Of a DNA stretch of 64,000 bases, positions 10,631-30,126 are shown one piece after another. The notes below the pieces were generated by a model. It did no database searches. It was not told the origin of the DNA and was given only the letters and a program-made list of their open reading frames with translations. Each line of letters begins with the position of its first letter. Position 1 is the first letter of the stretch. The translations under genes were made by a program, and so were the position numbers. This DNA is from Minisyncoccota bacterium (GTDB taxonomy: Bacteria; Patescibacteriota; Minisyncoccia; UBA6257; GWB1-50-10): NCBI GenBank assembly GCA_041659005.1, contig JBAZZD010000001.1:16366-80365 (forward strand), read 5' to 3'.

Positions 10631-10661
10631 GCTTTTTCTATTTAAATAAAAATCAAACAAG

Positions 10662-10691: not shown

Positions 10692-10693
10692 TG

Positions 10694-13050: not shown

Positions 13051-13257
13051 AAATTAAATGTATTGTTTTATTATTGATAATACCACCACTTGAACAAATA
13101 AAAAACACTGATTATATCAATGTTTTTTTAAATGGCTCCGAGCTGTGCAGGAACTTAGAACCGTTATTTTAAGCGGTTGGCACTCCTACGAAATGGACGC
13201 GGCCGTTAAAATGCTCCGGGGAGAGGAACCGTTCGACTTGATTGATTAAAAAGTCAG

Positions 13258-14367: not shown

Positions 14368-14417
14368 TTGTGTATTTTTATTATACCAGTATTCAATATG
14401 TAAAATATTTCCATAAA

Positions 14418-14702: not shown

Positions 14703-14720
14703 ATATATTATCTGTTGTTT

Positions 14721-15284
14721 TTAATGCGATAGAAACTTTCCTAATAATCGCTCTTTAACCTGATAAAGCTCTTCTTTAGTAAACACATCCTGATAATCCC
14801 AAAGACGTCCATTTGAACTAAAAGCGTTCAAATAGTGCTCACAGTAAATTTTTGGATTAATAAAGATCGTGTCATCGCGTTTTTCCCAGCCTAGAGCGGA
14901 GGTGTAATCATAGCCAATATCGTAACCGCCGATACCAAGCCATTGATGAGCGAGTATATTACGCCAATTATGGATTGATTCGGCCACCTGAGAAAACCTC
15001 GTGTCAGATGTATCACCGTCAACAAATTTCTCCAAAAATAATTTATATCCCTCAGGACCGCTTTTGTTGAAAAAACCTTCGGAGATCGTAAGTGCGACCG
15101 CGTGAATACCAAGAAACATAAGTGATGTTTGATAGTGATCATCCTCGGTTGTTAAACGAATTTCGTTGTTAAAGAAATTAGCAATAGAATTCAAAAGTGT
15201 TTCTATAATTTCTACAGGAGAACCATTTTGAAAACGTTTGATTCTTTTCTCCAGTGGCTCCAAATTGTGTGCTCGATTTTCCAT
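14721..15284 (-). CDS. Hypothetical protein with HEPN-like Rx4H motif
   Basis: WRNILAHQW matches the R-x4-H-x-aromatic HEPN signature. Co-operonic with the STAND-like gene. Confidence 0.4.
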   Translation of the reverse strand: MENRAHNLEPLEKRIKRFQNGSPVEIIETLLNSIANFFNNEIRLTTEDDHYQTSLMFLGIHAVALTISEGFFNKSGPEGYKLFLEKFVDGDTSDTRFSQVAESIHNWRNILAHQWLGIGGYDIGYDYTSALGWEKRDDTIFINPKIYCEHYLNAFSSNGRLWDYQDVFTKEELYQVKERLLGKFLSH

Positions 15285-15296
15285 CGTTGTTAATAA

Positions 15297-16166
15297 TTAA
15301 GGGTTACAAAATCTTATATAAACTCTTCGTAATTTATTACATAATTCGGGAATATTTTTTTTATCGACGTCTTCTGATTTAGGTATTTTATAATCACGAT
15401 GCACCATTTTATTTACCTCGTTTTTAAATACCCTGACTAAACTACACAAATCCTCAACCAAATCTTTGAAATCATAAAAGGCAGATGAATTTGCCTTTAA
15501 ATTATCAATTAATTTATCAAGATTTAAAATTCTTCCGTTAGTTGTGTCATACCATAATTGGTGATTTTGCTGTATATATTTTCCATTTTCATCCCGTTCC
15601 CTGAAAACTATTTCAAAAACTCTATGAATTATGCATTCTATTAATTTTCTGGTTAGAATCATCACGGCTAAATAAAGTCCTTCTCTATAGCTCTCATTTA
15701 TTTCTTTTTTTATGTAATCTAAAAATGGATCATTAAAATCATACTGTAAAAAATCTAAACTATTTTGAACCCCACTTATTTCTTCTTCTAATAATTCTAT
15801 TTTGTTTTGCGAAATATCTAGTTTGAAATTGGATTTTTTTACTTCGTCTAATAATTCTGGATACCATTTTTTAATATAGGTTCCGTAATAATTCCAGTTA
15901 TCTCTTTGTGTATTTTTTATTTTTTCATCAAAAATTACTTTCTCTAAAATGGCTAAATATCTATATGAAGGAACTCTTTGCATAAACTGAGCAAAATTAT
16001 TTTGCTCAGTACTCATGAATGAATAGGCCTCAAAGTTACTATAAAAATTATCGGGTAAATTAATCCCGTTAGCTTTTAAAAAATCAACAAATCCACCATT
16101 TTCATAACAGTGTATGTATAGCTTTTCAGATAATTCCCATATTCTGTTATTAATTATTAAAGCCAT
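15297..16166 (-). CDS. Hypothetical protein (operon partner of the Mrr-NTPase gene)
   Basis: 289-aa ORF, 3-nt gap to the upstream gene. No family recognised. Confidence 0.45.
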   Translation of the reverse strand: MALIINNRIWELSEKLYIHCYENGGFVDFLKANGINLPDNFYSNFEAYSFMSTEQNNFAQFMQRVPSYRYLAILEKVIFDEKIKNTQRDNWNYYGTYIKKWYPELLDEVKKSNFKLDISQNKIELLEEEISGVQNSLDFLQYDFNDPFLDYIKKEINESYREGLYLAVMILTRKLIECIIHRVFEIVFRERDENGKYIQQNHQLWYDTTNGRILNLDKLIDNLKANSSAFYDFKDLVEDLCSLVRVFKNEVNKMVHRDYKIPKSEDVDKKNIPELCNKLRRVYIRFCNP

Positions 16167-16169
16167 ATT

Positions 16170-19100
16170 TTACGATTTTGGCGATATAAGTTCCTCACCT
16201 TCATCTAGGTGTCTTTTTATATCGTCAGCGATTGATCCAGTTAAAGAATCTACATAGTTTTTTATAACTCCTGGCTGGCACTTGGCGCTTATTTTTTCTA
16301 ATGCTTCTTTTTTATTTACTAATGCAGGTGGAGCTTGCCCTACTGTGGAACTATAACTACCACTTATCACCTGATGAGTAAAAACGTCTTTTGCTTCATC
16401 TAACACCCCTGCTTTTTCGGCCGCCATCAAAAAATTCAAAAACAAATCAATTGTATCTGCACCAAAAGAGATGCCAAAAAAAGCATTAGTAGCTATTTTC
16501 AAACTTTCTGCGTCTCCAGTCTTTATTTTGTCACCAATATAGTGCAATAAATAGTCGCCGTGTTCACTATCATGACCACCAATGCTTTTACCCAAAAATC
16601 CATCAATATCGAAAGAGAATAAAAGTTCCTCATTTCGCCAAAAATTAATTTTATCCATCAATTTTGCAAAATCATCATAGTTCTTAATTAGCTCCGTAGC
16701 CGAACGAAAACCGTCAAAGGGAATTGCATCAAATTTTTCAGCGCCTCTATTTTTAAAATATTCGCTCTGTTTTTTGAGACGATATTCAACCAATTCAATA
16801 AACTGATCCAAATCACCATTAAGTGCAAATTTTAATAGATCGTCTGTGTGATAATCTACCGAAGGGATATCTTTTATTATTTCAAATAATTTTTTACGAA
16901 TTTTATCTAAATCACCGCTTGGTAAATTCCAATTTACGGCATTGTGAACTAGAAAATCGAACATATCTAATACGTTGCTGTTGACTACACCACTTAAAGA
17001 CTGCTCAAGAATATTCACAACCTGGTTTTTTTCTGTTTGATCCCTGTCCTTAAAAATAAAATAAGAACGATGAAGAATAAGATTCTTAAGATAATCATCT
17101 GCTTTCTCAATAATCTGAGATATCCACGGCATAAATTCTGCCGTAGAAACATTATGTCGTATTATAAGGTCTAAAAGATTGTCTACAGCTTGGCGTTGAA
17201 GATTATTTAAATCTCCTAAGATTCGGCTAGCATATTTCATTATGTATTGTTTATCCCTATCGGAGGCAACTCTATAAATTCCGAGATGGAATCTATTAGG
17301 AACACTACTCAACAAATTTTCATCATCTACGATCTCAATAAATGATTGGTTATTGAATTTAGACCAAGTCTCAACTAAAGGAATAGTCTGCCATTGAGTA
17401 ATTCCCTTCACTTCATTCTCAAGTTCATATAAGTATTTAATAATCTCGGCTCTGCTTTTATATTTATTAGATAGCCTTTTTACTACCTCATCCAACTCTT
17501 CCTGTGGAAAATCATGAAGTCGAAAGTGATTATGAACAAGCCAAGACCATCTATCGCTCTCGGGGGCTCCAGACTCTATTTTTTTAAAATCGGAAATAAT
17601 CAAATCATGAGCCACAAAATATCGAAAAATAATGTATTCCATTGATCTCGGAAAATTTCTAAGTATGCCAGCAATTTTATCGCTCAAATCTAAATAAATA
17701 TTATTATTAGCCCAATATCTAACAAGAACGTCTTCGATAGAACTAAGCACCTCATGAGAACTTGTTTCGCTAATTAATTTCTCTAACCATTCAATAGCTT
17801 TTGTTTTATCGGATAGAATCCTCTTCCAAAAATCATCGCTTGTGGAGGTTGCCTCGTGACCGATGTCATCAACAATTTCCACGCCTATTTTTTTAATCTT
17901 GTCATTGGAGTGAAGAACCAACTTTTTCAGGACATCCATTCCTACATCTCTAAACTCATCCACTGGTTTTTTGTATATACCTTCATAACGCAGAATTCTT
18001 CTACCAAAAGTTATTTGGTTACCGTAACTTTCCCTATGTTCATGCGATCCAGAAAGGGATTCCAAGACACCATCGCTAGCAAGCCTTGCTTCGAGTTCGG
18101 TACAATTTCCTTTGCTAACCCAATCCAATAATTCCTTTAGTGATTGAGTAGCTGAAGCTATATTTACTTCAATGGGTGATATCGCTTGTTTTATAAGACT
18201 AGCGGGCTTGTAATTATCGTAAGTACCCTTAAGGTCTTTCTGGGCAAGATAAAGAATCAATTTTAATATTGCTTTTTCAAATCCAGGTACATGCAAAACA
18301 TGGTAAATGACTGGCCCATAAGTATCCCGATTTAGTCCATATGAATTCTGTGTATTCGATGAATTTACATAGGCATAAACCAAACTGATTGCCTCTTCAG
18401 GGGCTAAAAAAGCAATAGAAGCAGCGAGTTCTAATATTTTAGATTTAGATGAATCGGATGTCTCAGATGTTTCATTAATCCATTTTTGGAAAAGCTCCTT
18501 CACGGCTTCGTTCGCCGAATTCGTATCCTTATGTCTAGATGCAGCTGCCAAATTTGCTGTGAGTTGTTTAGGGTAGATAGATAACCAATTCTCAAACATT
18601 TCGTTCGCTAAATCTTTTCCATTTTCTTTATCTAATTCTACAGAAAGATAGATATCTCCTTTCATGTCAGGATTAAATCTTATCGAGGCGCCAACAACAC
18701 GAAGAATTTTTGCCTCAATAAGTTTATTCAGAGCTTCGTTTATTAAATCTACTTTTAATTCCAAAACAGTTGCCAACTTATCAAGCACATTATTTCCACG
18801 TTTTTCTTTTGAAAATGGGACAATAATAGATAGCTCTCTTAAAAAAGCCTTTGAGTTGCGTTCATCTAATACACCCTTAAGTGCGTTTACGGTTTCTTGG
18901 TCTAAATTATCTTTAATCTGCTTTTTAACTTGACTCGGGTTTAAGTCGCCACCCTTAATAAGTTTTCCTGTCGTGATTATTAAAAACAAATTTCCATTTA
19001 GTTCTTTTACGATTCTTTCTGGATGATTAATCTTTTTTGAATCAGCTGCTAGATTTAAAATTTCTATAAGTTCCTTCTCGGAAAGATGAGGTAACTCAAG

Positions 19101-20027
19101 TAAATTATAATTATCTACCCGCTGCGAATCCGCTAAATTCTTAACAATTTCTTTCCCAGAACTGCGACAAGACAAGACAACCTTTAACTTTCCAGGAGAA
19201 AATGTCTTAGTGTGAGCAATTAATTTTCTTGTATCGTCTAAATATCTTTCAGCGTCATCTAGAAATATCAAGGAATTCTTTTCGTGATCTAACTCATTGA
19301 TAGCTTCGTTAATATCTCTAATCCCAGGTCGACAAAACCATGTTTGAATACCTGGCCATAAAGAATCGCCATTTTTTCCAGATTCTACAATAAAATGTGT
19401 TTTTCCATAGCCACCTCCAGAATGAACAATAAGAAGATTAGATGTATTTTTTTGTATAAATTCCTTTAAAATATTTACTGATTCTTCTCGGCCGACAAAA
19501 ACTCCTTTAAGAAGCGGCTCTGATTCGGCGAATACATGAGCTGGAACGAATGTTGGTTCTTGGGGATCGCCAAAGTAGTTATGCCTTAATAGCGGATATT
19601 GAGTTGTTTTACTTTCTAAGTTGGCTCGCGGCCAAATAAATAACTGATCGACGAATTTTTTATTTTCGTTTAGCTTCTCAAGTTTACCTATATGATCGTC
19701 GGTGCCTATTCTCAAATCAGCATTTGTCGCAACCAGTAAAAAATTCACTTTATTCTTCTTTGCCTTTTCTAACTCCTTTTTAATCTCTCTCTGTAATTGT
19801 TTATAGGCTGCCTCAAGATTATGTTTGGTCCATTTCGCTTGGAAATTCCAAACACCCTTAAGACCCATATATGGTCCGTCATAACGCCCATCCCAACCGC
19901 CATCTGCTCCAATTTCCGGATTGCTTGAGAGAAAAGCGGGGTGGTTAATTTCTAATGCAAAAAGATCGTTTACTAAACGTTGGAAGTCTCTATCATTATT
20001 GATTTTATTCCAATCTAGGTTTTTCAT
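16170..20027 (-). CDS. Large defense-like protein: N-terminal Mrr-like restriction endonuclease domain + P-loop (STAND-like) NTPase + long helical-repeat C-terminus (Avs-like architecture)
   Basis: N-terminus GADGGWDGRYDG..FQAKW (Mrr_cat-like PD-(D/E)xK). Walker A LIVHSGGGYGKTHF. Walker B LIFLDDAERY. About 950 aa of helical repeats. Start overlaps the res stop (ATGA). Confidence 0.6.
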   Translation of the reverse strand: MKNLDWNKINNDRDFQRLVNDLFALEINHPAFLSSNPEIGADGGWDGRYDGPYMGLKGVWNFQAKWTKHNLEAAYKQLQREIKKELEKAKKNKVNFLLVATNADLRIGTDDHIGKLEKLNENKKFVDQLFIWPRANLESKTTQYPLLRHNYFGDPQEPTFVPAHVFAESEPLLKGVFVGREESVNILKEFIQKNTSNLLIVHSGGGYGKTHFIVESGKNGDSLWPGIQTWFCRPGIRDINEAINELDHEKNSLIFLDDAERYLDDTRKLIAHTKTFSPGKLKVVLSCRSSGKEIVKNLADSQRVDNYNLLELPHLSEKELIEILNLAADSKKINHPERIVKELNGNLFLIITTGKLIKGGDLNPSQVKKQIKDNLDQETVNALKGVLDERNSKAFLRELSIIVPFSKEKRGNNVLDKLATVLELKVDLINEALNKLIEAKILRVVGASIRFNPDMKGDIYLSVELDKENGKDLANEMFENWLSIYPKQLTANLAAASRHKDTNSANEAVKELFQKWINETSETSDSSKSKILELAASIAFLAPEEAISLVYAYVNSSNTQNSYGLNRDTYGPVIYHVLHVPGFEKAILKLILYLAQKDLKGTYDNYKPASLIKQAISPIEVNIASATQSLKELLDWVSKGNCTELEARLASDGVLESLSGSHEHRESYGNQITFGRRILRYEGIYKKPVDEFRDVGMDVLKKLVLHSNDKIKKIGVEIVDDIGHEATSTSDDFWKRILSDKTKAIEWLEKLISETSSHEVLSSIEDVLVRYWANNNIYLDLSDKIAGILRNFPRSMEYIIFRYFVAHDLIISDFKKIESGAPESDRWSWLVHNHFRLHDFPQEELDEVVKRLSNKYKSRAEIIKYLYELENEVKGITQWQTIPLVETWSKFNNQSFIEIVDDENLLSSVPNRFHLGIYRVASDRDKQYIMKYASRILGDLNNLQRQAVDNLLDLIIRHNVSTAEFMPWISQIIEKADDYLKNLILHRSYFIFKDRDQTEKNQVVNILEQSLSGVVNSNVLDMFDFLVHNAVNWNLPSGDLDKIRKKLFEIIKDIPSVDYHTDDLLKFALNGDLDQFIELVEYRLKKQSEYFKNRGAEKFDAIPFDGFRSATELIKNYDDFAKLMDKINFWRNEELLFSFDIDGFLGKSIGGHDSEHGDYLLHYIGDKIKTGDAESLKIATNAFFGISFGADTIDLFLNFLMAAEKAGVLDEAKDVFTHQVISGSYSSTVGQAPPALVNKKEALEKISAKCQPGVIKNYVDSLTGSIADDIKRHLDEGEELISPKS

Positions 20028-22387
20028 AATTCAAGTGCCATCCATTCTTTCCAATCATCCTGTTCGCATTTCTCCCAATCATAAATAGCCTTGTCGCTGA
20101 TGTGCCAGGCACGATTGCGTTCAATGACAATACCGCCGAAAAGCTTCTTGTTTTTCTGATCGGCAATGTATTTCTGCAAAGCTTCGGCTTTAGCTTTGGT
20201 GTAGGTTATACCGTCCCGATCACCGGAGTCTTTGACTTCAAACAAACCGATTCGACCGTCGGCAAACTTCACTAAATAGTCCGGGTAGAACGTATAGATG
20301 CCTCCGGCATATTCGTACTTTATGCCAAAGTAATCCTGCTTATTCTCTCCATTTTTCCACCACCAATCAATCTTAGAGGCGTTGTCGTTCAAGAATGACT
20401 CAAACTCACGTTCTGGCTTTGAGCGATCCACATTGAGATAACACGGATCATAAGCATACTTTTTCGCTTTTACGATTTCATCGGTGTACTCGTTATAAAA
20501 CTGCTCAGGCTGAAGCTCAAAAGGATATCGCTGTTCGCTTTCCTCGATACGCTCTCGGACTTCCTGCTCTTTAACAGCCTTATAGTTATCAATCGCCGTA
20601 GCCAGTACGTGCTCAAAGTAGCCACGATTTTTATCGTGCAAGAAAACCTTCTGCGCCATGAGCATATTTTCCTCACCCCAGCTCTTTGAGCCGAGCACCC
20701 CCTGAAACCAGAGATAGATGGCCGCTTTAACCGACGGGACCGAACGCTTCACGTTCTTGAAAGGTCCGAGATTGTTTTTAATGGTCTGCTCAAAAAAGAC
20801 CATGAGCTCGTCGGCCGCCACCTGAAGCTTGGCAAAACCTTCGGCACCGAGCTTACCCTCAAGCTCATCAAAACTTTTTATATCCAAATGCGTATCGGCG
20901 ATAATTTCTTGCTGATACTTCTTGATATTGAGATCAACGCCCTTGCTCTCAACTTTCTTGGCGTTCTCCGCTGGTTTATTTTTGCGTGATACGCCAAAGT
21001 ATTTATTGGCTGTTTCTTCAAAGACATCGTGGAAGCTGGATGTGACATCGCCATAATCCGCTCGAGCTTTGTAGTACGACTCTATCTTGAGCGATTTGTA
21101 ATCCTTTGTGCGTCCAGCTCGCAAATGCTTGATGATGTTCGGATTGTATTCTTCCTTTTTAACTTCGATTGATTTGAGATTGGTATAGATATAACCACGA
21201 TTGAGCATTTCGTGTCCGTAGTGTCGCTGTTCCGGCATACGCAAAATACGGCCAACAGTTTGGATTTCAAAGACGATATTATGTGTCTCTCGAAACTTCA
21301 CAAGAATGTGTGCTCGAGGACAATCCCAGCCGGTATCAATGGCTTGCTTGAAAATAAGAAATTCAATCTCGTTATCCGGCTCGGCGATCCAATCAATAAG
21401 CTCTGACTTCTGTTCGGCCAGCCAGATAGCCAGCTTGCCGTTGCCGTGCCCATCTTTACGTTCAACGATACTCTTACCAGCCAGAAATTTCTTCACTGCT
21501 TCGATCTTTTGGTCACCAGCTTCTGCGGTAGGAATCTGTACCAGAACCAAAGGATTGATATGTGATCCTTCTTTTTCAAATACCTTTTTAAGTTCTAGAC
21601 GCTTACGATAGGCGGCCTCGAGTACAGCTGATTGTGAGTCATCTTCGGAAGCGGCGATTTTCTCTATATCCTCGTTGATGATGATTTCTTTCTTAATCAT
21701 ACCTTCGTCAATCACATCTTTCGGCTCGACTATGACATAGCCAGCACCGCCTCGAGCCAGTTCCTGGGTAAAACCGAGCTCCTGCTGTGGCCGACGGGGA
21801 GTAGCGGACATTTCGATCACAATATCTGCACCGATAAGGTCGCGGAGCTCATTTGCCCGGGCTGTGTCAGCACTTACGTGGCTCTCATCAATAATAAGAA
21901 TGATTTTACGTTGCTCTCTGGTCTTCTCGAGCACATCCCGAAAATTTAACTTCTCGCCGTCTTTCATGACCAAGTTTTTCCAATCTCCGGATTCACGTTC
22001 CTTGCTTCGAAGTTTTTCCCAGTTGGCGACCACGACTTCGTTTTGCACGATCCGTTCACGCCCACCGCTAAAGGCATTCTCGACAGATGTAACTCGAGGG
22101 AAACCAGCGAATACCTTTTCGAGCGAATGTTTGCTCTGTAAATGAAGCTCACCCTTACCGATACTCATCCAAACAAAGCAAAAATCTTCTTTGGGGAGTT
22201 CTTTGATAATACCCTCGATGTACTTAGCCATCATGATGGTCTTACCCGAACCAGTGGGAGATTGAAAGACGCACACTTCGCCCGGGCCGTCATAACCCAA
22301 AAGCTTGACCGTTGTTTCGATCAGCTGATTAACGGCTTTTTCTTGATAAGGTTTAAGATCAATATTCATAAATTTGTTTATATACAT
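20024..22387 (-). CDS. res: Type III restriction enzyme Res subunit (SF2 helicase + endonuclease)
   Basis: Walker A FQSPTGSGKT and IIDESH (DEAH-like) box. Overlaps mod by 29 nt. Confidence 0.75.
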   Translation of the reverse strand: MYINKFMNIDLKPYQEKAVNQLIETTVKLLGYDGPGEVCVFQSPTGSGKTIMMAKYIEGIIKELPKEDFCFVWMSIGKGELHLQSKHSLEKVFAGFPRVTSVENAFSGGRERIVQNEVVVANWEKLRSKERESGDWKNLVMKDGEKLNFRDVLEKTREQRKIILIIDESHVSADTARANELRDLIGADIVIEMSATPRRPQQELGFTQELARGGAGYVIVEPKDVIDEGMIKKEIIINEDIEKIAASEDDSQSAVLEAAYRKRLELKKVFEKEGSHINPLVLVQIPTAEAGDQKIEAVKKFLAGKSIVERKDGHGNGKLAIWLAEQKSELIDWIAEPDNEIEFLIFKQAIDTGWDCPRAHILVKFRETHNIVFEIQTVGRILRMPEQRHYGHEMLNRGYIYTNLKSIEVKKEEYNPNIIKHLRAGRTKDYKSLKIESYYKARADYGDVTSSFHDVFEETANKYFGVSRKNKPAENAKKVESKGVDLNIKKYQQEIIADTHLDIKSFDELEGKLGAEGFAKLQVAADELMVFFEQTIKNNLGPFKNVKRSVPSVKAAIYLWFQGVLGSKSWGEENMLMAQKVFLHDKNRGYFEHVLATAIDNYKAVKEQEVRERIEESEQRYPFELQPEQFYNEYTDEIVKAKKYAYDPCYLNVDRSKPEREFESFLNDNASKIDWWWKNGENKQDYFGIKYEYAGGIYTFYPDYLVKFADGRIGLFEVKDSGDRDGITYTKAKAEALQKYIADQKNKKLFGGIVIERNRAWHISDKAIYDWEKCEQDDWKEWMALEL

Positions 22388-24089
22388 CTAATATCTTTTG
22401 AGGAATGGGTTCGAGCGTAACACCATGCCAGTTAGCGAACTCTGTTTTTGAAAGACCTGTGGCATCGAGCGTGAAGCAGTAAAGTATTTTCTCACCATCA
22501 ATTTCCTTTAGCTCTTTTTTCAAGGCGGGCAATGATTTACGGTCCAAAGAATAGTAAACAGCCAGCGTTTTATTGCCTTGTTGGAATATACGATAGTGAT
22601 CGGTCTTTTTTACTTCATCAAACACGCCTTCTCGCAAACAAAGCATCTCGGTGCATTCCTGTGTAATCCGTATCTTAAAGTCATCGCCGTTGGCGTTCTT
22701 TTTTACGAATTTTGTCTTGAAATATTTAAGAGAGCCACCCGTACCCGGCACTTTTACATTTTCAGAATTTTTATATCCTCCAGATACATTTTTCAGTCGA
22801 GGATAGCAAACTTCCGTACAAATATTGCCCTCGTCATTAGTACAAAGTATAAATTCTCTTTTTCCACCGTCCTGATTAAGTTCAAGAACTGCGTGACCCG
22901 TAGTACCTGAACCGGCAAAAAAATCGAGAACAATCCCGTCTTTTTTGATGGAGAGATTGATACATTTTTTAATTAGCTCAACTGATTTAGGGAAGTCAAA
23001 AAGATGCTGATGAAACATACTTTTCAAAACCTCTTTCCCGTTTTCGTTGTTTATGTTTTTATCTAACCATAAAGCTTTTTCTTTGGTTGTAGCTGTTTCT
23101 CCATTCTGCTTTATAAGACGATCTTTTCTATAGACTCGCCAAGCACCTGTTGAAACCTTTTTACCGACAAGATCAGTTATTTCCTTGGCGACTTTTTCTT
23201 TACCCCATGTCCAGCAACCGTCTTCGTTTTTAGAGTTGCGTGGGTAGACCTCAACATAGCCTTTCTTGTTAGTTAAAGAAACTACACCATTTTTTAAATC
23301 AACAAAAAGTGGGTAATAAAGATTTGGTCGGTTCTTTCGATTAAAGACAGGGTTACGATTTCTTAATTCCAAGAGACGATATTTCCCTTTCTCGTCCTCT
23401 TTATCATATTCGGCCAGCATTTCCTCACCTTTAGTAGGTTCTATAATTTGTGCAATGTTAAAATCCTTGGCGAAAACTAAAATATATTCAAAAGTTTTTG
23501 CGAAATGTTTATCAAGCGTTCTGCCTCGCGGATTTAGTTGGACAACAAGTTGAGCAATAAAGTTTTTCTCTCCAAAAATATCATCACATAATAGTTTAAG
23601 GTGCGAGACTTCATTGTCGTCTATGCTAATGAAAATAACCCCGGAGTCCTTAAGTAGGTTTTTTGCGAGCTGAATTCTCTTTGCCATAAAAGAGAGCCAT
23701 TTACTGTGCCGATATGCATCTTCTCTGTCGACGTAATTGTCATTATATTTAAAGTCCTTGTTGCCCGTGTTATACGGCGGATCAATATAGATCACATCAA
23801 CCTTACCTTGATGCGTAAAATTCAAAACTGAGAGAGCATGATAATTATCTCCCTCGATCAAAATATTAACCGGCCTGGACGGGTCCTTGTCAGTAATTTC
23901 CTTAGAACCGATTTCTTTTAGTACCGGTAAAGCATTCTCTGCATCTTTCTCAAATTGTTCTTTGACTTTTTCCTCATCCCAAATAAGCCCGTACTTCTTT
24001 CGGGACTCCAACTTCTCAACAATTTTGACTAACTCTTCTTTGCTGAGTTGGGAGTAGTCTTTTCCATTTTTGGCGATTTCCTTTTGCAT
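22359..24089 (-). CDS. mod: Type III R-M DNA methyltransferase Mod subunit (N6A/N4C beta-class)
   Basis: Motif IV IYIDPPYNTGN and motif I VLDFFAGSGTTGHAV. Confidence 0.8.
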   Translation of the reverse strand: MQKEIAKNGKDYSQLSKEELVKIVEKLESRKKYGLIWDEEKVKEQFEKDAENALPVLKEIGSKEITDKDPSRPVNILIEGDNYHALSVLNFTHQGKVDVIYIDPPYNTGNKDFKYNDNYVDREDAYRHSKWLSFMAKRIQLAKNLLKDSGVIFISIDDNEVSHLKLLCDDIFGEKNFIAQLVVQLNPRGRTLDKHFAKTFEYILVFAKDFNIAQIIEPTKGEEMLAEYDKEDEKGKYRLLELRNRNPVFNRKNRPNLYYPLFVDLKNGVVSLTNKKGYVEVYPRNSKNEDGCWTWGKEKVAKEITDLVGKKVSTGAWRVYRKDRLIKQNGETATTKEKALWLDKNINNENGKEVLKSMFHQHLFDFPKSVELIKKCINLSIKKDGIVLDFFAGSGTTGHAVLELNQDGGKREFILCTNDEGNICTEVCYPRLKNVSGGYKNSENVKVPGTGGSLKYFKTKFVKKNANGDDFKIRITQECTEMLCLREGVFDEVKKTDHYRIFQQGNKTLAVYYSLDRKSLPALKKELKEIDGEKILYCFTLDATGLSKTEFANWHGVTLEPIPQKILDVYKQIYEY

Positions 24090-24095
24090 AAAATT

Positions 24096-24287
24096 TTATT
24101 TCTTCTTACGTTTAACATTGCTCGTGTCCTCAAGAAAAGCATTTAGGTCCGACTGCTTGATCCGCCAGACTCCGAGCTTGGATGCTTTAAGCCGGCCGGC
24201 TTCGATGTACCGTGTGACCGTGCGTGTATGCACTCGTAAAATTTTAGCGACTTCCTCAATCGTAAAAAGTTTTTCGATTTCGTTCAT
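24096..24287 (-). CDS. Excisionase-family/MerR-like HTH DNA-binding protein
   Basis: 63 aa. LFTIEEVAKILRVHTRTVTRYIEAGRLKASKLG matches the Xis-family HTH. Immediately upstream of mod. Confidence 0.7.
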   Translation of the reverse strand: MNEIEKLFTIEEVAKILRVHTRTVTRYIEAGRLKASKLGVWRIKQSDLNAFLEDTSNVKRKKK

Positions 24288-24400
24288 AAAAATATATTAG
24301 TCGTTGATACCATTTTACCGCTTCTGCTTTTCGTTGTCAAAAACGCCGTCTTTTGTCATAATGAGCTTAACAACAAAAAGAGCACACTGTTTTAACAATA

Positions 24401-24470
24401 AGGATATCACTATATCACTCTGTTGATATAGTAAGTGGCTTTACTATCTCAGTTGATTGATATAGTAAAT
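24401..24470. repeat. Iteron/operator-like cluster of short direct and inverted repeats
   Basis: GATATCACTATATCAC. Two copies of TTGATATAGTAA and its inverse TTACTATCTCA within 70 bp. Confidence 0.4.
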
Positions 24471-24618
24471 TTAGTGAATGCCAATGCAACAAAAGTGTAT
24501 TACTGTCGAAAAGTGAACTGGAAAGGACTTTAAACACCCTTTCCAGTTAAAAAACGAAGCTGAACTCCATTAACTTCTTGTCAGCTTTTGTCAGATCAGC
24601 TGTCCACAGAAATGGGTG

Positions 24619-24648
24619 TTGACGGTCCCTAGAGAAATCCGCTAAAAT
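24619..24648 (+). promoter_or_regulatory. Sigma70-like promoter candidate
   Basis: TTGACG (24619-24624), 18-bp spacer, TAAAAT (24643-24648). Confidence 0.35.
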
Positions 24649-24654
24649 ATACAT

Positions 24655-24790
24655 ATCAGAGTTAGTTGGTCTGACGGCGACTGAATTCTCAGTCTAAACG
24701 TGACGGGACTACGACTACTGTTATCAGCACTGCCATTTGGTGTGTGCATTTGATGACAAGAGTCGTGGTCCCGTTTTTTGTTTTCCAGCT
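24655..24790 (+). ncRNA. Candidate small RNA (promoter to strong intrinsic terminator, no ORF)
   Basis: Internal hairpin GACTGAattcTCAGTC. Terminal 14-bp stem ACGGGACTACGACT/AGTCGTGGTCCCGT (24703-24774) followed by TTTTTTGTTTT. Confidence 0.3.
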
Positions 24791-24895
24791 CGCTCTGCTG
24801 ATAAATAATTTCCCTCTGAGGCTAAGGTGCCTCGATTAGACCGACGAATTTGATTAGACGGATAAAGGCTAGCTCCCGGCAGGGGCCAGCCTTTT

Positions 24896-25096
24896 ATGTT
24901 GCCCCAAGAAGCAATCCAAGAATTTAAAACACTGTACGAAAAACGCTACGGCGTAAAGCTCTCCGATGAGGAGGCTGCTTTGCGCGCGAATAATCTTTTC
25001 AAACTTTACAAGATCACCTACATGGGTGAGCCAAACATCGACGACTTCAAAGAAAAAGTAGTGAAAAGCCATGACCTCAACACCAACCACAATTAG
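24896..25096 (+). CDS. Hypothetical small protein
   Basis: 66-aa ORF in the GC-rich segment. No family recognised. Confidence 0.3.
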   Translation: MLPQEAIQEFKTLYEKRYGVKLSDEEAALRANNLFKLYKITYMGEPNIDDFKEKVVKSHDLNTNHN

Positions 25097-25379
25097 CGAA
25101 ATACAGTTCTACCCGGTTAAACCCCAGGACGGCCTCCTTGGGTTTGTTTCGTTTGTCCTGGACAGCAAATTCTGGATGGGATCGGTGGCTGTTTTCTCCA
25201 GGCGCGAGGGCGGATACCGGCTTGTGTATCCAACACGCAAAGTTGCCGGACAAAACATTAATATTTTTCATCCAATTAACCACGAAGTCGGCATCCTGGT
25301 CGAAAAAGCCGTCAGTGAAAAAGTAGCTGAAATATTTAGTGAATCATATGAACAAACCGAACCGGACAACACGTGGTAA
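25071..25379 (+). CDS. SpoVG-family protein
   Basis: ISEIQFYPV..DGLLGFVSFVLD..F.....V....EGGYRLVYPTRK....INIFHPIN..VG..VEKAV aligns with the conserved SpoVG core (..HPIN..). Confidence 0.6.
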   Translation: MTSTPTTISEIQFYPVKPQDGLLGFVSFVLDSKFWMGSVAVFSRREGGYRLVYPTRKVAGQNINIFHPINHEVGILVEKAVSEKVAEIFSESYEQTEPDNTW

Positions 25380-25779
25380 AAGCTTAAATTTCTTTCCGGC
25401 TCCTCACCTGGTCTTCGATGACGACCGGCTGAAGAATTCGCTCACGCACGCCGAGCGGGATTTTCTCATGGTTATCTGCCACCTCTCAAACCGCTATGCA
25501 AATGCAGCCGGCTGGTTTTGGCATACCGATCGATTGTTTACCACGCGCGAAGACAAGGAGCGCGGGTTCGCTTCGTTTGGGTTTAGCAGATCAACATGCC
25601 GCCGGGTGAGAAAGAAGCTTGCCGGTCTTGGACTGATAGAAACCAGACCGGGAACATCGGAACGTGGCCGGTGGGCCGGAACTTTGTATCGCCTTAACCC
25701 CAGACTTCTCCAGCCTGCCGGGGTTCATAATGAAGCACGGTCAGGTGTCTTAGAGAATCATGGCCCGGGTCCACCATGA
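25339..25779 (+). CDS. Hypothetical protein with winged-helix-like C-terminal region
   Basis: CRRVRKKLAGLGLIETR resembles a wHTH recognition helix/wing. GC-rich codon usage. True start uncertain (overlaps SpoVG-like ORF). Confidence 0.35.
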   Translation: MNHMNKPNRTTRGKSLNFFPAPHLVFDDDRLKNSLTHAERDFLMVICHLSNRYANAAGWFWHTDRLFTTREDKERGFASFGFSRSTCRRVRKKLAGLGLIETRPGTSERGRWAGTLYRLNPRLLQPAGVHNEARSGVLENHGPGPP

Positions 25780-26063
25780 AGCACTTAGTAATAAAGATTG
25801 AGTAAGAAAGAAACAATAAGAGAGCTTAAATAAAGCGAGATGGCTCGTCAAAAATTAAAAAATAGGGGTTGGGCAAAGCTTGGGTGAAACTTGGGCAGAT
25901 TTTCGAGAAGATAACCAAATAAAAGGCGAACAAAATCGGTACAAGAATAGATACCCAACCTGTAAATAAAGGCGTAAAATGTAAGTAATTAAGTGTTTGA
26001 CTTCTTTCGACCTTAGGACCATGTTGTGCTTAGGTCGAGAAAATAATTAATGAAAACAATCAT

Positions 26064-26927
26064 ATGACAAACAAAGCCAAAATAACCACCGTAATCGCCC
26101 TTGTAGCGGTCTTTGGTGCAGGATTCGGGGTTTATTACCTTCTAGGAAACAAAGCACCGCGCGGAGGCACGAATACAGACGTAGCCTCAATTACGACATT
26201 CGAGCAATGCTCTGAGGCCGGTTACCCGATCGTTAAGCATTATCCAGATCAGTGCAAAACTCCGGACGGTAGAATTTTTGTAAACGACAATCCTCCAAGC
26301 CAAACAGAGCTTGTGAAAGCCGAGCAAACAATTCGAACGTTCATGGGAGAGCTGAATCTGGAGTTGCAATACACCGGACAAAATAATCATCCCACGAATT
26401 TTGCCGTCTTAAGCAACGTTAAACAGAACGACGGCGGATTTACGGCCGACAATCCCGAAGAATGGGACCGGCCGGTCTACATCTTCCAGCAAACAGATTA
26501 CATCAACGACCGCTGCGAAGTTTATCAATATCAGGTAACGCAAAAAACGAATCAGGTCGTGGAAATCGGAATTGTCTATCCGATAGAACGCAACGCTACC
26601 ACGCCAGGTAATTGCCCTGGTAACGGATCGCTGGAAACTCCGCTGAAGACCAAAGCTGAAATCGAACAAATTGCCTTCGCTTATTTCGGCAGAGACCCGG
26701 AACACACGAAATTCATGCTTCGCTCCGACATCCAGCTTAAATACATCTCAAGCAAACCAGGCGCAGCAAACCCGGCTGCCAATGAATGGCAATGGGAAGA
26801 CAAAAACGCCTCACTGCCGGACGGACTGACCGGCGATCCGTGGCAGCACCCGATTGCCAGAATCATAATATCAAGTGGCGGTAAACTGATTTACTATCTG
26901 AACACCACCGACTTATTCCAAAACTAA
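26064..26927 (+). CDS. Secreted/membrane-anchored hypothetical protein
   Basis: N-terminal TM/signal (ITTVIALVAVFGAGFGVYYLL). GC-rich. No family recognised. Confidence 0.5.
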   Translation: MTNKAKITTVIALVAVFGAGFGVYYLLGNKAPRGGTNTDVASITTFEQCSEAGYPIVKHYPDQCKTPDGRIFVNDNPPSQTELVKAEQTIRTFMGELNLELQYTGQNNHPTNFAVLSNVKQNDGGFTADNPEEWDRPVYIFQQTDYINDRCEVYQYQVTQKTNQVVEIGIVYPIERNATTPGNCPGNGSLETPLKTKAEIEQIAFAYFGRDPEHTKFMLRSDIQLKYISSKPGAANPAANEWQWEDKNASLPDGLTGDPWQHPIARIIISSGGKLIYYLNTTDLFQN

Positions 26928-26928
26928 T

Positions 26929-28512
26929 ATGAACCAGGAAGTACAACCAAAACTCAAGTACTTCCTCTACGCTCGAAAATCTTCAGAACAAGAAGACAGA
27001 CAGGTCCTTTCGATTGACTCGCAAAAGAGCGAATTGGAAGCACTCGCAAAACGGGAAAAGCTTCAGATTGTGGAGCGTCTCGAAGAATCCTATTCAGCCA
27101 AAGCACCAGGCCGGGAGATCTTTAACGCGATGATAAAACGAATAGAGAAAGGTGAAGCGGAGGGCATTGTTGCGTGGCATCCGAACCGGCTCTCACGTAA
27201 TTCCGTGGACACCGGCTACCTGGTCTACCTTATGGACCAGAATAAACTCCTCGAAATCCGAACACCCGGACAGGCATTTAAGAATTCGCCAAATGATAAA
27301 TTTTTACTAAACCTCCTGTGCAGCCAAGCCAAACTCGAAAACGACAACAAGGGCGTGGACGTAAAACGTGGACTCAGGCGCAAAGTAGAGATGGGCTGGC
27401 ATCCGGGCGTTGCTCCAATCGGCTATATGAATACGCCGGACAAAATGAAAGGTTTTAAGACGATCCGCAAAGACCCGAAGATGTTTCCGATAATCCGGAA
27501 AATGTTCGATATGATTTTGAGCGGTACATACACCGCGCCACGTGTCCATGAAATTGCCGTCAATCAATGGGGCTTAAAGAAACTCGCCCGAAGCGGTTTC
27601 TACCGCGTGCTTTACAATTCCTTTTACTACAGTTGGTTTGAGTGGCCGGCCGGATCGGGCAACTGGCACAAGGGCAAGCACGAACCGATGATCACGCGCG
27701 ATGAATATGACCGCGTTCAGGCACTCCTTGGCCGTGGCAGCAAGCCAAAACCAGAAGCACATTCATTCGCATATACCGGAATGATCCGATGTGGTGAATG
27801 CGGATGCATGGTAACGGCCGAGAATAAAATAAAGAAAAATAAGAACGGCAATGTCCACCACTACACTTATTACCACTGCACGAAACGCAAAGGTCCATGC
27901 GCTCAGAAATGCATAGAAGTGAAAGAAATGGAAAAGCAGATTACCGGCACGCTTGCTAAAGTCCGGCCACCGGAAGAATTCCACGGCTGGGCAATGAAGT
28001 GGCTGCAGAACGAGAACGGTCGCGAAGCGGCCGACCGCAATGCGATCCTCTCTAATCAGCAGAAAAATTACGAAGCATGTGTGCGGAAACTGGACGCGCT
28101 TATAGATATGCGTGCAGCTGGGGAAATTAGTGAAGAAGAATTTGCACGAAAAAAATCAACGATCAATCAGGAGAAAGCAAAACTGCATGAGCTTTTGAAT
28201 GATACTGACGCGCGGGTGGACAGCTGGCTGCAGACGGCCGATAACGTGATCAAGTTCGCAACAGACGCCAAAGAAGCATTTACGGAACGGGGCCAGCACG
28301 CGAGAAAAGTCATTTTATCCGCCTTAGGTTCGAACCTCCTCCTAAAGGACAAAAACATAAGCATTGACACGGATTCTGCGCTTCTGCCGATGATTCTCGT
28401 CTCAAATTCGTCCGCAAAAAATTCTGGCACGTTCGAACCTCCGAATGAAGGCTCTAATAAAGAGAAAAGCCACGCTTTTGACGTGGCAAATCCCATGTGG
28501 CTCCCCGGGTAG
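26929..28512 (+). CDS. Large serine recombinase (phage-integrase type)
   Basis: Resolvase N-terminal domain YARKSSEQEDRQVLSIDSQ with catalytic Ser. Recombinase domain. C-terminal zinc ribbon CGECGCMV..YYHCTKRKGPCAQKC. Last ~14 nt overlap tRNA-Asn. Confidence 0.85.
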   Translation: MNQEVQPKLKYFLYARKSSEQEDRQVLSIDSQKSELEALAKREKLQIVERLEESYSAKAPGREIFNAMIKRIEKGEAEGIVAWHPNRLSRNSVDTGYLVYLMDQNKLLEIRTPGQAFKNSPNDKFLLNLLCSQAKLENDNKGVDVKRGLRRKVEMGWHPGVAPIGYMNTPDKMKGFKTIRKDPKMFPIIRKMFDMILSGTYTAPRVHEIAVNQWGLKKLARSGFYRVLYNSFYYSWFEWPAGSGNWHKGKHEPMITRDEYDRVQALLGRGSKPKPEAHSFAYTGMIRCGECGCMVTAENKIKKNKNGNVHHYTYYHCTKRKGPCAQKCIEVKEMEKQITGTLAKVRPPEEFHGWAMKWLQNENGREAADRNAILSNQQKNYEACVRKLDALIDMRAAGEISEEEFARKKSTINQEKAKLHELLNDTDARVDSWLQTADNVIKFATDAKEAFTERGQHARKVILSALGSNLLLKDKNISIDTDSALLPMILVSNSSAKNSGTFEPPNEGSNKEKSHAFDVANPMWLPG

Positions 28513-28572
28513 GACTCGAACCTACAACCATCGCGTTAACAGCGCGCCGCTCAACCATTGAGCTACCGGGGA
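28498..28572 (-). tRNA. tRNA-Asn (GTT)
   Basis: Hand-folded cloverleaf. Acceptor TCCCCGG/CCGGGGA. D-arm GCTC-AATGGTT-GAGC. Anticodon loop CTGTTAA. T-arm GTAGG-TTCGAGT-CCTAC. Encoded CCA. Confidence 0.8.
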
Positions 28573-29023: not shown

Positions 29024-29209
29024 ATAGTCGCCTCAAATTTGTTAGTATGTTTAAGAACCTGTTTAGTATGCACCAAAACAAGAAAAAAATGCAACATTGA
29101 AAAAAAACGCGATCTTTTGTATAGTAAACTTCATACTTAAGAAAACTGATAATCATGAAGCCCCTATAGCTCAGTTGGTAGATCCGCCGTGGCGGACTCT
29201 TAAGCAAAT

Positions 29210-29464
29210 ATGTTCTTCGTCTATTTAATAAAAAGTAAAACATCAGGAAAAATATATATTGGACAAACGATAAATCTTGAAAAAAGATTAATGCGGCACA
29301 ATGGAATACTTCCAACAAAAAATTCATCATTCACTAATAAACAAGGGGAAAATTGGGAGGTACTATATACAGAACAATTTAAAACAAGAACAGAAGCAAA
29401 AAAGAGAGAAAGAGAATTAAAATCAGGAAAAGGTAGAGAATTTCTTAAAAATCTAATACAGTAG
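29210..29464 (+). CDS. Small GIY-YIG (URI/YhbQ-like) nuclease, copy 1
   Basis: 84 aa. FFVYLIKSKTSGKIYIGQTINLEKRLMRHN is the GIY-YIG core. Confidence 0.6.
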   Translation: MFFVYLIKSKTSGKIYIGQTINLEKRLMRHNGILPTKNSSFTNKQGENWEVLYTEQFKTRTEAKKRERELKSGKGREFLKNLIQ

Positions 29465-29520
29465 TAATAAGCCCCTATAGCTCAGTTGGTAGATCCGCCG
29501 TGGCGGACTCTTAAGCAAAT

Positions 29521-29775
29521 ATGTTCTTCGTCTATTTAATAAAAAGTAAAACATCAGGAAAAATATATATTGGACAAACGATAAATCTTGAAAAAAGATT
29601 AATGCGGCACAATGGAATACTTCCAACAAAAAATTCATCATTCACTAATAAACAAGGGGAAAATTGGGAGGTACTATATACAGAACAATTTAAAACAAGA
29701 ACAGAAGCAAAAAAGAGAGAAAGAGAATTAAAATCAGGAAAAGGTAGAGAATTTCTTAAAAATCTAATACAGTAG
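29521..29775 (+). CDS. Small GIY-YIG (URI/YhbQ-like) nuclease, copy 2 (identical)
   Basis: Identical translation to 29210..29464. Confidence 0.6.
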   Translation: MFFVYLIKSKTSGKIYIGQTINLEKRLMRHNGILPTKNSSFTNKQGENWEVLYTEQFKTRTEAKKRERELKSGKGREFLKNLIQ

Positions 29776-29781
29776 TAATAA

Positions 29782-29854
29782 GCCCCTATAGCTCAGTTGG
29801 TAGAGCAGTTGCCTCTTAAGCAAACGGTCCTAGGTTCAAATCCTAGTGGGGGCA
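29782..29854 (+). tRNA. tRNA-Lys (CTT)
   Basis: Cloverleaf. GCCCCTA acceptor. D-arm GCTC-AGTTGGTA-GAGC. Anticodon loop CTCTTAA. T-arm CTAGG-TTCAAAT-CCTAG. 3' acceptor TGGGGGC+A. CCA not encoded. Confidence 0.8.
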
Positions 29855-29860
29855 CAAATT

Positions 29861-29890
29861 AAAAAATCCAAATTTGTTTGGGTTTTTTAA
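29861..29890 (+). terminator. Weak intrinsic terminator after tRNA-Lys
   Basis: AAAAAATCCAAAtttgTTTGGGTTTTTT. Confidence 0.4.
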
Positions 29891-29994: not shown

Positions 29995-30024
29995 GAGCGA
30001 CGTTCAATTCCCTAGTGGGGGCAC
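29995..30024 (+). other. Diverged partial tRNA-Lys 3' fragment (T-loop + 3' acceptor strand) at the end of a structured ~130-nt segment
   Basis: GTTCAATTCCCTAGTGGGGGCACAA compared with the intact GGTTCAAATCCTAGTGGGGGCACAA. Preceded by three GAA-loop hairpins (GGGAGA..TCTCCC, GCCCgaaGGGC, TTAGAAACCgaaGGTTTCTAA). Confidence 0.5.
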
Positions 30025-30126
30025 AAATACCAAATTCCTACAGAGATGTCAGAATTTGAATTTTTAATTATTAATTTCTAATTTTTAAATAATAAGAATT
30101 CGAACACTTTCAGTCTACCTAATAAA

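Follow-up and report, generated by a model that had tools for sequence, protein, structure and literature searches.

A probable serine-recombinase island with anti-phage cargo at the 3' end of a tRNA-Asn gene in a Candidatus Paceibacterota genome

Results

The locus and its recombinase

The window analysed here is a stretch of 64,000 nucleotides from contig JBAZZD010000001.1 of a Minisyncoccota bacterium (assembly GCA_041659005.1, positions 16,366 to 80,365 of the forward strand), and all coordinates below refer to it. Our subject is a stretch rich in guanine plus cytosine (GC) that ends at a tRNA-Asn(GTT) gene (28498-28572, minus strand; called by ARAGORN, 66 bits in Rfam) and that most likely forms the conserved core of a mobile island of 15.4 kb with anti-phage genes. 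This core carries a structured leader RNA, an open reading frame (ORF) of 66 aa named orf66, a SpoVG-like gene, a gene for a winged helix-turn-helix (wHTH) protein, a gene for a membrane or secreted protein and, at its end, the gene of a large serine recombinase (LSR) that overlaps the tRNA gene, which is the integration target.

The LSR gene (26929-28512, plus strand) encodes 527 aa as integrated, and its product is NCBI record MFA5870307.1, from a Candidatus Paceibacterota metagenome-assembled genome (MAG). The Pfam matches are Resolvase (1.1e-19, residues 12-156), Zn_ribbon_recom (26.7 bits, cutoff 25.3) and SHOCT, and PF07508 is graded 'faint' in close homologues. The protein can be aligned with SPbeta SprA across residues 11-441. 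It has the catalytic motif Y14-A-R-K-S18 (Y-x-R-x-S18), with S18 conserved in at least 90% of 64 homologues. In addition, the AlphaFold2 (AF2) model of P0005, which is 89% identical to the LSR, resembles the integrases of SPbeta, Bxb1 and PhiC31 (E 2e-19 to 1e-13, 15-26% identity) and contains two long helices at 351-452. Judged from its sequence, the window enzyme is a bona fide large serine recombinase. A comparison with phage integrases, which the first-pass annotation of this DNA had suggested, gave the phrog_95 integrase family at 1e-61 and, as best phage protein, a match at most 26% identical. No close relative was found in phage or plasmid records, and an exact look-up of the LSR protein among contigs gave no match.

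An insertion at the end of tRNA-Asn

The boundaries were defined with a related contig without the insert, L048, a comparison that the first-pass annotation had also proposed. This contig was reached through a 78%-identical homologue of the 126-aa host ORF to the right of the tRNA gene. Its positions 13-697 align with window positions 29182-28500 (85%) and its positions 694-2043 with window positions 9698-8351 (88%); tRNA-Asn lies at the joint of both alignments, and gene order is kept over 10 kb. Because the flanks join directly at tRNA-Asn in L048, window positions 9699-28499 (18,801 bp) are an insertion. The four bases common to both alignments, GCTC, are the core of the junctions and occur at 9695-9698, 13135-13138 and 28500-28503. 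The outer left copy stands between the host trailer and a cassette that we call unit B, as a composite left attachment site (attL); the internal copy separates unit B from unit A, and at this same core begins a left-end block conserved in six loci. At the right copy (attR) the L048 alignment breaks, and the element ends there or within TGGCTC(C), 28498-28504. The insertion is composed of two tandem cassettes, unit B (9699-13134) and unit A (13139-28499, 15.4 kb), the latter with the LSR. As candidates for an empty site, two more contigs were considered: L001 was rejected, being identical to the window with the LSR end still present, and L047 shares synteny on the right side, but the contig stops at the position of tRNA-Asn.

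The right junction is the same in many relatives. When the LSR 3' ends of 20 loci were aligned, conservation ran to ...AATCCCANNTGGCTC(C) and was followed by tRNA acceptor stems that vary by host (CCGGG, GGAGA, GGGAG, GGCGG and others), the sequence on the element side being conserved in 17 or more loci. The junctions comprise 16 distinct tRNAs, 15 of them tRNA-Asn and one tRNA-Gln (L015). The last three LSR codons and the stop are antisense to the host tRNA; the LSR frame thus reads into tRNA antisense, and therefore close homologues have 527-565 aa and tails such as ...WLRGWDSNPRP. Peptide ends of this kind were present in 52 of the 116 full-length top LSR homologues, and the behaviour extends through the family. 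The gene of a more distant relative, 52% identical (L050), shares 61 nt with tRNA-Gln(TTG) and is preceded by a SpoVG gene. The first-pass annotation had noticed the overlap with the 3' end of tRNA-Asn(GTT) and had put it at about 14 nt. The overlap is real and measures 15 nt; the integrative element that it was taken to announce is supported, while the hallmark itself consists of a shared core of 4-7 bp with readthrough of the ORF, and not of a long duplicated tRNA fragment. A second copy of the tRNA-Asn 3' part, sought in the window with up to three mismatches, was not found apart from the tRNA itself. The lack of such a repeat fits a serine and not a tyrosine mechanism.

Some junctions of relatives are peculiar, and two of them are signs of off-target or relaxed specificity. 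In L015 (11570-11643) an 87%-identical LSR lies at tRNA-Gln(CTG) with the junction TGGCTCG. In L022 (4170-4300) the LSR frame enters a translation similar to the middle of a guanylate kinase; either a pseudo-site or a chimeric assembly may account for it. In L011 (11570-11640) and L018 (11570-11624) tRNA-Asn can be matched from its 3' end as far as the anticodon loop and no farther (...TTAC followed by ACGTG... and by ACTTG..., respectively), and ARAGORN finds no tRNA; the gene could be truncated, or its anticodon loop could be interrupted by an intron or another insertion. Finally, in the Vogelbacteria contig L009 (12023-12114) ARAGORN calls a 92-nt 'tRNA-Asp(atc)' about 380 nt past tRNA-Asn, of unusual length and anticodon; the call may be false, or the tRNA may contain an intron.

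The tRNA end and its replacement terminator

The uninterrupted tRNA-Asn of L048 ends in ...GGAG followed by CAGATAAA, with no encoded CCA. In the window the tRNA ends in ...GAGCCA, of which the terminal ...GCCA is supplied by the element. Upon insertion, the last tRNA bases were replaced by identical ones plus an encoded CCA. The element also provides an intrinsic terminator for the tRNA, found by a terminator scan at 28469-28487 on the minus strand (GCCACGTCAAAAGCGTGGC then TTTTCTCTTT). Its hairpin starts 11 bases downstream of the tRNA on the tRNA strand (fold z -2.1) and is antisense to the LSR 3' codons ...KSHAFDVA..., within the last ~15 codons. Compensatory changes affect three of the seven stem pairs among 15 distinct sequences, with 17 compensated cells and a score that was reached in none of 500 shuffles; the compensated stems are GCCACG/CGTGGC, GCGYCGC/GCGACGC and GCCGAG/CTCGGC. 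One stretch of DNA thus appears to serve as LSR C-terminus, tRNA terminator and recombination half-site.

The left end and a probable split of the recombinase gene

The left end of unit A (13136-13249, plus strand) is a putative P' arm with a 36-codon extension in the frame of the LSR C-terminus (L RAVQELRTVILSGWHSYEMDAAVKMLRGEEPFDLID, then a stop). The block of about 105 nt is conserved in six loci, and in the five others (L003, L013, L017, L023, L026) it lies 4.9-11.5 kb to the left of the LSR. It opens with CTCCGAGC..., immediately after TGG/ATG, and is in frame with the LSR end ...NPMWL. In each of the six loci this frame runs for 37-51 codons without a stop, the other frames having stops in several of them, and synonymous and non-synonymous codon differences are about equal in number. 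Small ORFs with this tail occur among public proteins, and some fuse the tail to the LSR C-terminus, for example P0169 (...KSRAFGSAHPIWLRAVRELRTV... / ...NKEKSRAFGSAHPIWLRAVRELRTVILSGWHSYEMDAAV...).

This organization suggests that the attachment site of the circle (attP) lies within the LSR gene and that integration exchanges its last 36 codons, splitting the gene. In the circular form the LSR gene would cross the junction and end in ...NPMWL-RAVQELRTVILSGWHSYEMDAAVKMLRGEEPFDLID and a stop, gaining a conserved 36-aa C-terminal tail; the reconstituted LSR would have 560 aa and the end ...NPMWLRAVQELRTV...DLID. Integration would swap the tail for a few codons of tRNA antisense. The attP junction to be expected in the circle is ...GACGTGGCAAATCCCATGTGGCTCCGAGCTGTGCAGGAACTTAGAACC..., and the empty target (attB) would read ...ATCAATGTTTTTTTAAATGGCTCCCCGGGTAGGACTCGAACC... 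upon loss of unit A and ...CACCAAATTTATCTGCTCCCCGGGTAGGACTCGAACC... upon loss of both units.

The geometry of the half-sites was examined as well. Offsets were counted from the G of GCTC. The T-loop GAAC of the tRNA has offset 19 in each of the 16 distinct tRNA arms. In five of the six left-end blocks GAAC, usually as TT[A/C]GAAC, lies at offset 24, and the same offset is found in all five junctions where an LSR is followed by non-tRNA sequence (L003, L010, L026, L029, L032). In unit A, the T-loop-like TTAGAAC of the P' arm stands exactly 5 bp farther from the core than the TCGAAC of the tRNA. For the LI/A118 integrase, Rutherford and colleagues reportedly described in 2013 a zinc-ribbon motif placed 5 bp outward in attP with respect to attB, which would be the expected geometry. 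Because the shift of GAAC matches this geometry, the left-end block probably behaves as a genuine P' arm that imitates the T-arm of the tRNA. In the left half-sites, P as well as B, no convincing symmetric motif was found. At the left end of unit B (9695-9737, plus strand) there is a degenerate P'-like arm or short tail (GCTCTGCCAGTGGGACGCCGTTGGAAATAA...TAA); its TTGGAAA occupies offsets 21-27 from the core, just as TTAGAAC does in the corresponding arm of unit A.

As to the attL junctions of relatives, the host trailer gives an in-frame ATG just before the tail codons in L003 (964), L017 (1473) and L023 (58), and a GTG in L013 (874). From such junctions gene callers predict ORFs of 41-80 aa that are mostly LSR tail (P0170-P0181).

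The conserved core module

Relatives share with the window an ordered module formed by the 66-aa ORF, the 102-aa SpoVG-like ORF, an ORF of 142-146 aa, one or two variable membrane or secreted proteins and the LSR. In the window, it is preceded by a promoter (TTGACG-18-TAAAAT, 24619-24648) and a structured leader or small RNA of about 130 nt (24655-24786), with an intrinsic terminator at its end, the whole spanning 24619-24786 on the plus strand. The RNA is conserved in 19 loci. Since the register of the terminator stem differs between subgroups, RNAalifold and single-sequence folding were used and not one column-wise model; the former gave 31 pairs, 11 of them with compensatory changes, and the window RNA folds with a minimum free energy of -59.9 kcal/mol (z -6.9). 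No Rfam family matched. Pairing is possible between AGTTGGTC, in the 5' part of the leader, and the 5' strand of the terminator stem, so that the RNA might work as an attenuator-type switch. All 19 loci also have a second GC-rich hairpin (GGCTAGCTCCCGGCAGGGGCCAGCC then TTTT, 24864-24898), placed 1 nt before the start of orf66, which may occlude or position the ribosome-binding region of that gene.

The most conserved gene of the module is orf66 (24896-25096, plus strand), with identities of 76-100% over 21 loci (87-100% except L003) and the exact sequence on 18 contigs; searches in Pfam, PADLOC, PHROGs and NCBIfam gave no usable family match. The SpoVG-like protein of 102 aa (25071-25379, plus strand) is followed by the wHTH protein of 146 aa (25339-25779, plus strand; phrog_270 2.7e-6, phrog_428 1.3e-3) and by a membrane or secreted protein of 287 aa (26064-26927, plus strand). 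The last one occupies a variable slot, where in some loci conservation is limited to the 5' ~150 nt, and in L002, L003 and L006 different genes stand there.

To the left of the module lies a divergent control region (24312-24468). It contains a leftward promoter (TTGACA-17-TAAAAT, 24340-24312, 11/12 match) and, at 24409-24468, two imperfect 26-nt repeat copies with inverted repeats. The promoter faces a leftward operon, the first gene of which (24096-24287, minus strand) encodes a 63-aa DNA-binding protein of the HTH_17/excisionase family (Pfam HTH_17 1e-16; TIGR01764 44.3 bits, cutoff 28.8; MAD1-like; PHROG excisionase). This protein, orf66 and the SpoVG-like protein are candidates for a directionality factor.

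Most of what the first-pass annotation had listed in this segment agrees with these results. Its candidate small RNA is a conserved structured RNA by its 19 loci, covariation and z score; its wHTH-like ORF weakly matches the N-termini of phage replication initiators (the phrog_270 hit); and its secreted protein, with a single hydrophobic helix at the N-terminus, is encoded by the gene that varies within the module. Two items have to be qualified. The repeats that it called iteron-like exist, but they co-occur with the HTH_17 gene, in L012 and L023, and do not travel with the core. The SpoVG-like gene aligns over its full length with a SpoVG structure, although weakly (PDB 2i9z, E 0.06), its Pfam SpoVG score of 28.1 bits is below the cutoff of 29.6, and NCBIfam gives 24 bits with a threshold of 108; a SpoVG gene is also part of the module of the 52%-identical relative.

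Composition of the segment

The core (24561-28503) has 47.5% GC, and the segment 24300-28572, which had been described as GC-richer over some 4 kb, has 47.0%; the whole window averages 37%. Outside the island the mean is 36.6% (standard deviation 2.0, maximum 40.2, in 408 four-kb windows), and the core reaches a z of 5.5. GC at third codon positions (GC3) amounts to 50-58% in five core genes versus 20-33% in the flanking host genes, and the tetranucleotide distance from the host peaks at 24-26 kb. These sliding-window profiles, which had been recommended at first pass, support that description. A second GC-rich patch, of 45%, corresponds to the Res gene of a restriction-modification (R-M) system (20024-22387).

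The horizontal acquisition of a tRNA-adjacent integrative element, as had been proposed, is borne out by the absence of the region in L048 and by the recurrence of the module with other cargo in other hosts. Its extent had to be corrected: the 4.2-kb GC-rich part is the conserved core and is too narrow for the element, unit A being 13139-28499. The earlier suggestion that the R-M/defence operon may belong to the same island also holds, since the operon lies within unit A.

Cargo, unit B and tandem arrays

The cargo of unit A is encoded on the minus strand. An alpha/beta hydrolase of 369 aa (13258-14367; Pfam Abhydrolase_1 9e-14) is followed by two ORFs of 187 and 289 aa (14721-16166) without match in Pfam, PADLOC or PHROGs, which form an operon with a gene for a 1285-aa protein (16170-20027). 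The latter shows a weak P-loop/STAND NTPase signal, reaching 24.8 bits with nSTAND_NTPase5 (cutoff 34), and has no match in PADLOC. Next lies a type III R-M system (20024-24089; PADLOC and Pfam) with Res at 20024-22387 (PADLOC REase_III 2.6e-17, Pfam ResIII) and Mod at 22359-24089 (MTase_III 1.8e-91, Pfam N6_N4_Mtase). The operon 14721-20027, located between known defence genes, is a candidate for an uncharacterised defence system. No virion structural or packaging genes were found, ten ORFs compared with PHROGs giving only integrase, excisionase and replication-initiator-like families; the other ORFs of the region have non-phage assignments in Pfam or PADLOC.

Unit B is a recombinase-less cassette that is not present at the empty site of L048. 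It contains a 171-aa ORF (9803-10318, minus strand), for which Pfam, PADLOC and PHROGs gave nothing usable, and, by Pfam, a DUF378 gene (10424-10630, plus strand), a SOUL gene (10694-11368, minus strand) and a gene for a PAF-AH-like hydrolase (11548-13050, minus strand). A tblastn search for a recombinase remnant in it found none. At its right end there is a terminator-like hairpin (13100-13128, minus strand; -12.6 kcal/mol, z -3.9) followed by AAATGGCTC.

Array-like arrangements were observed in other genomes as well. In L010 an LSR of the same type is followed by a P'-like arm and then by a second element, the 32%-identical LSR of which overlaps tRNA-Asn with the same layout of a hairpin plus TGCTCC; L013 and L026 have neighbouring recombinase remnants. 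In addition, the gene set of unit B (171-aa ORF, DUF378, SOUL and large hydrolase, with TspO in relatives) adjoins LSR elements elsewhere (L026 10570-15201, L003 54-878). In L026 these genes lie between a P'-like tail and an LSR 3' remnant, and they may represent a second cassette family that lost or borrows its recombinase.

Distribution of related elements

LSR homologues with E <= 1e-10 amount to more than 6,400 proteins. Close ones (85-98% identical) come from groundwater and other metagenomes, and many adjoin tRNA-Asn in Patescibacteria MAGs; the MAG labels are Vogelbacteria, Parcubacteria, Paceibacterota, Kuenenbacteria, 'Patescibacteria group' and WWE3. Where the core module recurs in this way, its LSR is 86-98% identical to that of the window. 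The host genes to the right of the LSR differ between loci. To the left, the cargo differs and is mostly anti-phage: type I R-M with Fic (L002); AbiEii, DpnI, an OLD-family ATPase and DUF4365 (L003); HTH_17, a HATPase_c_3 protein, HNH, an Eco57I-like enzyme and XhoI (L006); type II R-M and PD-Lambda-3_B (L009); another type III R-M (L010); a SIR2/pAgo-associated protein (L012); and a type II endonuclease (L020).

Repeats around the neighbouring tRNA-Lys

To the right of the insertion, directly upstream of an intact tRNA-Lys(CTT) (29782-29855), there are two perfect tandem units of 311 bp (29158-29855). Each of them combines ~23 nt from the start of tRNA-Lys with a GC hairpin, the anticodon-loop-like CTCTTAAGCAAA and a GIY-YIG ORF of 84 aa (Pfam 2.5e-16). 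L048 has no such unit, and L047 has one, with a 167-bp deletion. They have the appearance of a small, recently amplified GIY-YIG element by which the 5' half of the tRNA is duplicated. Furthermore, the last 18 nt of tRNA-Lys with its trailer (CCTAGTGGGGGCACAAAT, 29842-29869) are repeated 169 bp downstream (30011-30038), which could be the relic attachment repeat of an excised or decayed element.

Discussion

In our view, unit A is in all likelihood an integrative genomic island of a Candidatus Paceibacterota genome, mobilised by its own LSR and inserted at the extreme 3' end of tRNA-Asn. It would be the tRNA-proximal member of an array of two cassettes, with attP embedded in the LSR gene; we infer that it is excised and transferred between cells, and its replication would run through the Rep-like wHTH protein. 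Several observations weigh against this interpretation. An empty site for unit A alone was not found; the left boundary of this unit was placed by means of the internal GCTC and the conserved block. Neither an excised circle nor an attP junction of this exact element was found in viral and metagenome contigs: the attP pattern scanned for, AATCCCANNTGGCTCCGAGC, gave 0 hits in viral contigs and 17 in metagenome contigs, 16 of which are unrelated chance matches and only one, L032, is related. The fused protein P0169 could derive from a tandem array and not from a circle, and in the AF2 model of a tailed homologue the tail region is unstructured or of low confidence (predicted local distance difference test, pLDDT, below 50), giving no structural clue to its role. 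The element has no transfer genes (relaxase, capsid), which leaves its mobility from cell to cell unexplained. The covariation of the tRNA terminator hairpin stands on about three sequence lineages. Finally, the left cargo at 13.1-20.0 kb has a host-like GC of 35%, and composition alone would not assign it to the island. It should be mentioned that L003-L005, considered as attP or as distinct contexts, are a single context in which the LSR is followed by another P'-like arm, and that the 9.3-kb contig L049, which encodes a tailed recombinase, lacks a terminal repeat and hence is not demonstrably circular.

The compositional data could also mean that only the GC-rich part, at ~24.3-28.5 kb, is mobile, the R-M and NTPase genes being an older and unrelated defence island at a tRNA-Asn hotspot. 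The anomaly in GC and tetranucleotides is indeed confined mainly to 24-28.5 kb, with a host-like 13.1-20 kb, and the similarity between loci at DNA level mostly begins at ~24.56-24.64 kb. However, the P' block with the tail in the LSR frame is found at 13136 and not at 24.5 kb, and no structure of GCTC plus P' exists near 24.3-24.6 kb; the five other loci with the block have their cargo between it and the LSR, and in every locus the defence genes lie exactly between core and left end. We hold this narrower element to be improbable. Still lower is the probability that we give to a degraded prophage or a phage satellite, including one that hijacks a helper, with the LSR as its integrase. The nearest named families are of phage type (the phrog_95 integrase, the excisionase and the replication-initiator-like wHTH), but capsid, terminase, portal, tail and lysis genes are absent from the 15.4 kb and from the inspected relatives, the distance of the LSR from phage proteins is large (identity of 26% or less), and the junction appears in no viral contig.

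A third alternative concerns the activity of the system: the LSR might have been domesticated or have become an inactive relic in an island that is fixed, and the in-frame 'tail' would be an untranslated footprint of a half-site. The lack of a circular form in the viral and metagenome contigs would agree with it, as would the poorly modelled tail and unit B, an example of the loss of recombinase by cassettes at the same site. Against this, the ORF of the LSR is unbroken and retains the conserved catalytic motif, and its DNA identity of 94% to copies with other flanks in other hosts speaks for recent transfer. In addition, the conservation of the tail extends over ~105 nt, far past a half-site of ~25 bp, and in the six loci in-frame stops are absent, whereas the other frames have them in several loci. 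A relic is thus unlikely, although it deserves slightly more credit than the two other alternatives, and we maintain the interpretation of unit A as an island mobilised by its own LSR.

A broader and tentative proposal, which we put forward as a possibility rather than as an expectation, is that the LSR clade of Patescibacteria (>6,400 homologues) is a tRNA-targeting cassette system. The swap of the tail through attP in the gene might act as a sensor of the integration state that sets directionality or stability; the P arm would double as tRNA 3' end and terminator; and the P' arm, imitating the T-arm, would make resident junctions reusable. Together, these properties would yield tandem arrays of exchangeable defence cassettes. 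If true, it would be a platform similar to integrons and to the staphylococcal cassette chromosome (SCC) for shuffling defence genes in ultra-small bacteria without known conjugation machinery.

The mobile elements of Patescibacteria, also called candidate phyla radiation (CPR), are barely described, and a widespread family is now precisely delimited, with its attachment sites, control module and swappable anti-phage cargo. The empty site and the 16 independent tRNA junctions document a clade of serine integrases that targets tRNA 3' ends. LSRs need only short sites and no host factors, and enzymes that recognise a conserved tRNA end could serve as integration tools in CPR bacteria, where genetics is almost absent. 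The overlap of LSR C-terminus, terminator and half-site is, furthermore, a clear case of constraint on several layers of one sequence. In a literature search thin on subscription journals, we found no report of attP inside a serine integrase gene and none of such elements in Patescibacteria.

Comparison with known systems

The islands that tyrosine integrases insert at tRNA genes (P4-like, Islander-type) are similar in that they abut the tRNA, have the integrase gene proximal to it, restore the tRNA with element sequence and carry adaptive cargo. They differ in the attachment repeat, which is a tRNA fragment of 15-50 bp versus a core of 4-7 bp in the window, and no match to Phage_integrase (tyrosine) was obtained among the scanned ORFs of 9.7-28.6 kb. 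SSV-type elements target tRNA genes, and integration of SSV1 splits its int gene near the 5' end, disabling it. An attP within a coding sequence is known from SSV1-type archaeal integrases and from the repressor of mycobacteriophage BPs (PMC8371274, PMC4557955). In both, as proposed for unit A, integration alters the end of a protein; however, their enzymes are tyrosine recombinases, and in the window element the exchange would concern no more than the last 36 codons.

Tycheposons and related cryptic elements of Prochlorococcus include 27 of 937 with an LSR (bioRxiv 10.1101/2020.12.28.424599). They are likewise small, cargo-carrying integrative elements at tRNA genes of streamlined genomes, some with replication genes, but they are mostly tyrosine-recombinase elements of another phylum, and the likeness is drawn from their description. 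The LSRs of phages (SPbeta SprA, PhiC31, Bxb1, A118/LI) share with the window enzyme the catalytic domain, recombinase domain, zinc ribbon and coiled coil. The short core without long repeat and the shift of 5 bp between the P' and B' motifs, seen on the right half-sites, would also agree with them. In contrast, the known ones target protein-coding or intergenic sites, identity is 15-26%, and the window is without phage genes. Serine integrases at tRNA or tmRNA genes were described by Mageeney et al. (2020) in 14 of 297 islands, as a rare and unreported situation that needed proof (PMC7192596).

The SCC and SCCmec cassettes of staphylococci, moved by the LSRs CcrAB or CcrC, are enriched in defence genes (PMC11470126). 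They are inserted by LSRs at the 3' end of a conserved housekeeping gene that is not inactivated, form tandem arrays that include recombinase-less cassettes, and carry anti-phage cargo; the window shows all four of these traits. The target differs, being rlmH/orfX in SCC and tRNA-Asn in the window, and the host phylum here is Patescibacteria. The window LSR is no Ccr orthologue, with NCBIfam scores of 80 bits for CcrB (cutoff 900), 62 for CcrA (700) and 36 for CcrC (900). Unlike SCC, the window element has a single recombinase gene at its very end, which would span attP. SCC/SCCmec is thus the functionally closest system, and the window element is not a member of it.

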